64,000 bases of DNA from Escherichia coli (GTDB lineage Bacteria; Pseudomonadota; Gammaproteobacteria; Enterobacterales; Enterobacteriaceae), in the NCBI RefSeq assembly GCF_003334305.1, contig NZ_QOWS01000015.1. One strand, given 5' to 3'. Position 1 is the first letter of the stretch. Each line of letters starts with the position of its first letter. This document shows, piece by piece, positions 45,065 to 45,290 of this stretch. Position numbers and translations under genes: made by a program. A model generated the notes under the pieces. The model had not been told where the DNA came from, searched no databases, and saw nothing but the letters and a program-made list of their open reading frames with translations.

Positions 45065-45126
45065 ACGTAGCAGGGATCCTCGTCATTCAGGGCGTGGAGG
45101 ATGTCAAGACACGGAAAACGAACATG
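44900..45126 (+). ncRNA. Predicted omega-RNA (right-end RNA) scaffold plus guide for TnpB
   Basis: Inferred by analogy to characterised TnpB systems, where the RNA overlaps the tnpB 3' end and the right end; not directly detected. Confidence 0.3.
45077..45100 (+). repeat. Predicted IS right-end subterminal imperfect hairpin
   Basis: CCTCGTCATTCAGGGCGTGGAGG; direct-repeat partner of the left-end hairpin. Confidence 0.45.
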
Positions 45127-45290
45127 ATGTTTGTGGTTGGTAATTATCACCGATCGTTGATGGCGCAATTTCTGCGCCATCGCAAAAAAATCCTCCGTGA
45201 TGCTCGTCACAAATCTTGCCCTCCCGATGTTGTGCTATGCTTTTTATCAGCGACTAACCCGCTAATGCAAAACAGATAAGTGAGGAAACA

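Follow-up and report, generated by a model that had tools for sequence, protein, structure and literature searches.

A perfect hairpin beside an IS609 end in Escherichia coli is native sequence of the yoaG 3' untranslated region

A window of 64,000 nucleotides of Escherichia coli DNA (RefSeq assembly GCF_003334305.1, contig NZ_QOWS01000015.1) was analysed. All positions refer to this whole stretch unless K-12 or another locus is named, and its written strand is the plus strand. The original prediction had singled out the segment between the right end of an insertion sequence and yeaQ for a 61-aa open reading frame (ORF) and a perfect hairpin. The features of the locus are as follows.

43213-43359, plus strand: codons 1-49 of yoaG, fused to 13 IS-encoded codons (ORF 43213-43401); PGAP and comparison with K-12.
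43360-45107, plus strand: IS609 (IS200/IS605 family), 1748 bp, lying after TTAT and ending in ...TGTCAA; delimited by excision against K-12.
43417-43848, minus strand: tnpA, Y1 transposase gene of IS609; ORF list and PGAP names.
43856-45064, plus strand: tnpB/insQ of IS609; ORF list and PGAP names.
45094-45279, plus strand: the 61-codon ORF with a GTG start; 14 nt at its 5' end belong to the IS609 right end, and the remainder runs across the end of yoaG, the hairpin and the yeaQ promoter.
45108-45123, plus strand: putative omega-RNA guide GACACGGAAAACGAAC, proposed from its position next to the right end and from the family rule given below.
45108-45143, plus strand: displaced 3' end of yoaG, codons D50-W60 and TAA (DTENEHDVCGW and stop); comparison with K-12.
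45159-45181, plus strand: the hairpin, native to the yoaG 3' UTR, 16 nt past the yoaG stop codon; K-12 identity, copy count and alignment.
45184-45190, plus strand: A-run just 3' of the hairpin, A7 here, with no U-tract on the plus strand.
45196-45211, plus strand: CRP-like site CGTGA-N6-TCACA, kept in Escherichia (perfect TGTGA-N6-TCACA in lineage L003) and in Salmonella.
45233-45241, plus strand: extended -10-like element TGCTATGCT of the yeaQ promoter, invariant across Escherichia and kept in Salmonella.
45291-45539, plus strand: yeaQ, a membrane protein of the GlsB/YeaQ/YmgE family; ORF list and annotation.
45553-45578, plus strand: canonical yeaQ terminator, a hairpin with a T-run found by the terminator scan, which contrasts with the hairpin studied here.

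Joining 43213-43359 to 45108 onward restored K-12 yoaG and the yoaG-yeaQ spacer with 0 gaps and 4 substitutions, the hairpin being identical. The insertion point lies in yoaG after codon 49. With the right boundary between 45107 and 45108, the ORF does span the IS right end, as had been predicted. The insert is 98.2% identical over 1748 bp to the 'insertion sequence:IS609' annotated in NC_000913.3. The two copies have their first bases, last bases, length and TTAT target in common, and the right flank of the K-12 copy differs from that of the copy in the window. When 45065-45290 was used as a megablast query against 5,426 complete E. coli genomes, K-12 and most of the other genomes matched only from 45108 on, starting within yoaG. 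The IS-end part of the query also matched other loci and plasmids, without the yoaG flank. IS609 carries its own subterminal hairpins inside the element, at approximately 43376-43395 and at 45076-45103, which have the motif CGTC(C/A)TTCAGGGCG in common.

A 60-nt probe for the junction of IS609 with yoaG matched over at least 80% of its length in 1100 of the 5426 complete E. coli genomes, and yoaG is split by IS609 in about 20% of E. coli genomes. The insertion is an old one, vertically inherited, by which YoaG loses its last 11 aa and gains 13 IS-encoded aa. The right-end hairpin at 45076-45103 has two substitutions against the K-12 copy (45080 T and 45085 A), which change its folding energy from -15.7 to -11.8 kcal/mol; both were also found in three other genomes with the insertion. 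The weakened hairpin might impair recognition by TnpA and be part of the reason that the insertion is fixed. The tnpA ORF (143 aa, 43417-43848, minus strand) is open here, with an HUH-like HVHLL and a C-terminal Tyr motif RQYIEQQ. PGAP calls tnpA a partial pseudogene in strain 120899, and its K-12 counterpart yncK is annotated as a pseudogene. At the 3' end of tnpB, where the scaffold of the TnpB omega-RNA is expected, positions 44991-45034 gave a sub-threshold match to RAGATH-18 (29.5 bits, E 0.0085, gathering score 44.9). The guide of an omega-RNA in the TnpB family is formed by the approximately 16 nt flanking the IS right end. TTAT followed by GACACGGAAAACGAAC is the uninterrupted yoaG allele of strains free of the IS.

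Both the ORF at 45094-45279 and the hairpin exist as originally described, the latter as GATGGCGCA-ATTTC-TGCGCCATC at 45159-45181 with a 9-bp stem, a 5-nt loop and no mismatch. The ORF had been considered probably not a gene, and this judgement held: its frame is not conserved, no Pfam domain was found in it, and it has been called only sporadically, as a hypothetical protein. K-12 has TGA where the window reads CGA, and indels or stops interrupt the frame in four further Escherichia lineages (L003, L004, L005 and L008). A search of 5.8 billion proteins returned five matching clusters, all of them E. coli/Shigella entries named 'hypothetical protein', and no homologues outside these calls.

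Shorter versions of the ORF have been annotated. Gene c2201 of CFT073 (AAN80660.1) is a 40-codon version that starts at TTG/ATG in the 5' arm of the hairpin, where the ATG lies at 45160. The accession ABE07469.1 is listed for the same 40-aa entry as c2201. A 40-aa ORF between yoaG and yeaQ is described as UTI89_C1993 (PMC4959519), and this and the ABE07469.1 entry are probably the same call. Both c2201 and UTI89_C1993 use the frame and the stop of the 61-codon ORF, but they are shorter (39-40 aa) and without the IS-derived start. No Shine-Dalgarno sequence could be recognised before the hairpin ATG on direct reading of the sequence, and current RefSeq/PGAP annotation places no gene at the ORF or at c2201/UTI89_C1993. 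A real small protein was rejected because the frame is not kept in relatives and the protein database holds no homologues. The 61-aa ORF is a chance reading frame made where IS609 entered yoaG.

The hairpin stem contains 6 G-C pairs among its 9. Folded alone, the hairpin has an energy of -15.0 kcal/mol on either strand, with z-scores of -3.3 and -3.45 against dinucleotide shuffles (61-nt context). A consensus scan called no terminator at the hairpin on either strand. The A7 run 3' of the hairpin on the plus strand corresponds to a T-run 5' of the stem on the minus strand, and the tail holds 0-1 T over both strands (0 in the 8-nt tail on the plus strand). The original view that the hairpin is not a canonical terminator in either orientation therefore agrees with these results. 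A census of the whole window (stem of at least 9 bp, loop of 3-8 nt) gave 16 distinct perfect hairpins (26 raw hits), against a randomised expectation of 1.85 +/- 1.5 from a first-order Markov model in which nested matches were counted separately. Such hairpins are thus enriched approximately 9-fold (16 distinct) to 14-fold (26 raw) over random, and many lie at gene ends. The hairpin is probably not pure chance, yet it is one among many in the window. Covariance models of Rfam 15 were run over 43000-46000 at E<=1 and gave no match at the hairpin, the sole match being that to RAGATH-18 in tnpB. Dispersed copies of the REP/BIME kind were absent, the hairpin occurring at one place per genome (BLAST word size 11, E<=10).

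In K-12 an identical hairpin is found at a site free of IS609, at 1879365-1879387 on the minus strand. The 50-nt hairpin region was found exactly once per genome in 5418 of the 5426 complete genomes of E. coli, whether IS609 is present or not (permissive BLAST). The comparison with the K-12 yoaG-yeaQ spacer that the original prediction proposed thus identified the hairpin as ordinary native intergenic sequence. Its placing between the IS right end and yeaQ was correct as to position, but the displaced yoaG end at 45108-45143 had been overlooked. Because that segment is the 3' end of yoaG, the hairpin lies in the yoaG 3' UTR. It is near certain that the hairpin is native to Escherichia, does not belong to the IS and is non-coding.

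For a wider comparison 76 yoaG loci were fetched, one genome per species. Only E. coli and the cryptic Escherichia clades have yeaQ directly 3' of yoaG. In 68 of the 76 yoaG loci of other enterobacterial species, the first 110 nt past the stop codon contain a hairpin with 6 bp or more, and in 23 of these 68 it has a T-rich tail. It follows that yoaG is normally the last gene of its transcript, with a stem-loop after it. The Escherichia hairpin occupies the same place after yoaG, but is without the T-run. In the Escherichia alignment the core GGCGC...GCGCC is kept while the flanks vary, and the A-run behind the hairpin varies among E. coli/Escherichia (A6TT, A7, A7T, A8 and A9). A variant common in E. 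coli (O111/BEC1) has C-to-T at pair 7, which gives G.U in plus-strand RNA and an A-C mismatch on the minus strand. In L003 the pairing at pair 1 is kept, as G.U, in plus-strand RNA only; L005 has one compensatory change of G-C to A-U in the stem; and the stem is partly broken in L003 and L008. Over this alignment, which has little divergence, 91% of cells were paired, with 1 compensatory pair and 2 G.U changes, a result equalled by 271 of 500 shuffles.

The hairpin was not found in E. albertii (L006), in Salmonella or in other genera. At the E. albertii locus (1681-1720) hairpin, yeaQ promoter and yeaQ are all absent, and what corresponds to the E. coli yeaQ/yoaJ terminator comes immediately after yoaG. 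Salmonella yeaQ is 1.2 kb more distant, with a CRP-like GTGA-N6-TCAC and the -10 region TGTGCTAT(G/T)CT kept upstream of it. The palindrome is not kept there, so hairpin and yeaQ do not move together. An 11-mer from the 5' arm of the E. coli hairpin, TTGATGGCGCA, is found again in Citrobacter youngae, where it falls in the loop and 3' arm of the canonical yoaG terminator (L017:1744-1754 and L025:1745-1755; E=2.5). This match may reflect shared ancestry or be coincidental. Descent from an ancestral yoaG terminator was not adopted, its sole support being this 11-nt C. youngae match, which at E=2.5 is not significant. A further observation concerns the Salmonella sequence upstream of yeaQ (L022/L023, approximately 2610-2760), which contains a Fur-box-like GATAATCGTTATCATT and, on the opposite strand, the RyhB core sequence. 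This is ryhB-2/isrE, and E. coli has the hairpin in its place. According to the literature, ryhB-2/isrE regulates yeaQ in Salmonella.

The sequence 3' of the hairpin belongs to yeaQ. Positions 45120-45290 are almost invariant across Escherichia species and partly conserved in Salmonella, and 45196-45290, comprising the yeaQ promoter and 5' UTR, is better conserved across Escherichia than the adjoining yoaG coding sequence. A SELEX peak of the RpoD holoenzyme lies in the yeaQ/yoaG spacer and places the yeaQ promoter there (PMC3946193), and yeaQ is among the Genomic-SELEX targets of CRP (PMC3105977). The extended -10 element TGCTATGCT has C at -13, which suggests that the promoter may be served by sigma-S. 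Term-seq of uninduced K-12 mapped a strong 3' end at the yeaQ terminator (K-12 1878964/5; PMC7815308). The yeaQ mRNA is listed in the MazF regulon with cleavage 3 nt upstream of the AUG (PMC5001579), and the ACA at 45286-45288 fits this place.

Published expression data bear on both sides of the hairpin. In CFT073 grown anaerobically with nitrate, yoaG was up 168x, yeaR 160x and c2201 142x (PMC5320621), and yeaQ was outside the top 50 nitrate-induced genes, i.e. below 9.4x (PMC5320621). In intracellular communities of UTI89, yeaR and yoaG were induced, and UTI89_C1993 and yeaQ were not (PMC4959519). The two UPEC data sets therefore agree that yeaQ is not co-induced, but disagree on the short segment immediately 3' of the hairpin (c2201/C1993). 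The K-12 Term-seq tables, which come from cultures without nitrate or NO induction, list no 3' end for the hairpin (PMC7815308). In uninduced K-12 cells a bicyclomycin-sensitive, Rho-dependent read-through site was mapped antisense to yoaG at NC_000913.3 1879512(+) (Adams et al. 2021, PMC7815308). This corresponds to approximately position 43286 of the window on the minus strand, and IS609 here separates the site from the spacer. No minus-strand promoter-like site was found in 44900-45700.

The hairpin is best explained as a 3'-end stem-loop of the yeaR-yoaG transcript, acting as plus-strand RNA; its function at the RNA level was inferred, and this reading was given an even chance of being correct. 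The GC-rich stem of -15 kcal/mol would define the 3' end of the nitrate/NO-induced yeaR-yoaG mRNA and shield it. It might do so as a weak, factor-requiring terminator devoid of a U-tract, or as a barrier to 3' exonucleases once termination occurs further downstream. The yeaR-yoaG transcript would thereby stay largely apart from yeaQ, which has its own promoter. In the strain analysed here yoaG is split by IS609, and the hairpin now stands downstream of tnpB and the IS right end. In favour of the RNA reading are the stem-loops found after yoaG in most other species, the expression data in which yeaR and yoaG are induced without yeaQ, the two natural variants, O111/BEC1 and L003, that pair only as plus-strand RNA, and the compensatory change in L005. 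Against it count the lack of a U-tract, the lack of a Term-seq end at the hairpin in uninduced K-12, covariation that is not significant, the partly broken stems of L003 and L008, and the conflicting UPEC data.

The palindrome could instead act as DNA, the 9-5-9 inverted repeat serving as an operator to which a dimeric transcription factor binds and so modulates the yeaQ promoter, with the A-tract perhaps an UP-like element. The repeat is a perfect DNA palindrome just upstream of the conserved A-run and the CRP-like site, its centre approximately 77 bp 5' of the position inferred as the start site of yeaQ. The GGCGC...GCGCC core persists across Escherichia amid varying flanks, and both RNA polymerase and CRP SELEX signals map to the yeaQ/yoaG spacer. 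Inspection by eye against motifs of known factors (NsrR, FNR, CRP, LysR-type and others), however, gave no convincing match, and in Salmonella the palindrome is missing although the yeaQ promoter is kept. Its spacing to the CRP-like site also shifts by 1-3 bp as the lengths of the A-run and loop vary, and the O111/BEC1 variant loses the DNA symmetry while retaining G.U in RNA. An operator was considered unlikely. The original suggestion of a regulatory structure for yeaQ is unlikely as an RNA element, as the hairpin is upstream of the conserved yeaQ -10 and is not kept in Salmonella. The palindrome may also have no function, as a leftover such as an ancestral yoaG terminator that lost its T-run when yeaQ became the neighbour of yoaG in Escherichia, and persist through the similarity of E. 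coli genomes to one another. Chance-level covariation, the degraded stems of L003 and L008, and the absence of the hairpin from E. albertii (L006), Salmonella and other genera all fit such a history, and the 11-nt identity of TTGATGGCGCA with the yoaG terminator of C. youngae, at an E-value of only 2.5, hints at a terminator as its origin. Perfect hairpins of at least 9 bp are, on the other hand, 9- to 14-fold over random in the window, with many at gene ends, and the stem core is better kept than the flanks across Escherichia. Lack of function was rated improbable.

The remaining readings were given much lower standing. A U-run followed by a hairpin could lie near the 5' part of a minus-strand antisense RNA that runs into yoaG, and the Rho-dependent site at K-12 1879512(+) (PMC7815308) does show low-level transcription on that strand. 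That signal could be read-through from yoaJ. The absence of a promoter-like site on the minus strand in 44900-45700, the lack of an Rfam family at the hairpin and the A-C mismatch that the O111/BEC1 variant causes on the minus strand all make an antisense element very unlikely. The small RNA proposed in the original prediction finds no support, with neither an Rfam match nor, in uninduced K-12, a Term-seq 3' end. It had also been proposed that the hairpin is part of the IS end. This was rejected on the K-12 excision, the single copy per genome and the different right flank of the K-12 IS609. That the hairpin is a piece of the right end of IS609 or of its omega-RNA, or that the ORF (or the 39/40-codon c2201/UTI89_C1993) encodes a real small protein, is scarcely credible. 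The ORF does start within the IS right end, and c2201 was formerly annotated as a gene in a nitrate-induced region. The hairpin, however, lies 52 nt outside IS609, whose last base is 45107, and is unchanged at IS-free sites including K-12, and the genuine IS609 subterminal hairpins lie elsewhere (approximately 43376-43395, and 45076-45103). The ORF frame, moreover, is broken in K-12 and sister species, no recognisable Shine-Dalgarno precedes the hairpin ATG, PGAP has dropped the ORF, and there are no homologues elsewhere.

A broader proposal, also held to be unlikely, is that the GC-rich palindrome with the conserved A-tract may form an Escherichia-specific boundary element without a U-tract, either a factor-dependent terminator or the operator of a putative regulator. 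If so, it would insulate the nitrate/NO-induced yeaR-yoaG from the stress-regulated yeaQ promoter, and in the approximately 20% of E. coli genomes with the insertion it would cap the transcripts leaving tnpB and the guide RNA. The yeaR-yoaG locus is strongly induced in urinary-tract infection. Neither the hairpin nor the ORF is unusual; both are ordinary, are explained by their native context, and matter little. The main use of the analysis is for annotation: the 61-aa ORF and c2201/UTI89_C1993 should not be called genes, and 45108-45143 should be marked as the end of yoaG that was displaced when IS609 disrupted the gene.

Compared with the subterminal hairpins of the IS200/IS605 family, the hairpin is likewise a short palindrome near an IS end, but it shares no sequence with those of IS609, sits outside the element and occurs at sites free of the IS. 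With an intrinsic terminator it has in common the GC-rich, perfect 9-bp stem, the short loop and the position 16 nt past the stop codon of an operon's final gene, and canonical terminators are found at the same relative place in the yoaG loci of Citrobacter, Kluyvera and others. It differs from one in having no U-tract on either strand, an A-run on the coding strand and no mapped 3' end (uninduced K-12). For lack of the U-tract it is not filed as an intrinsic terminator. In bacterial 3'-end mapping studies, stem-loops in 3' UTRs have been found to shield transcripts whose ends arise by Rho termination or processing against 3' exonucleases. By analogy the present hairpin may be likened to these protective structures, being stable, without a U-tract and soon after a stop codon, and the transcript signal reaches the hairpin region and does not reach the next gene at comparable induction. 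If it ends or stabilises the yeaR-yoaG mRNA without a U-tract, it would add one more to the non-canonical 3'-end elements.
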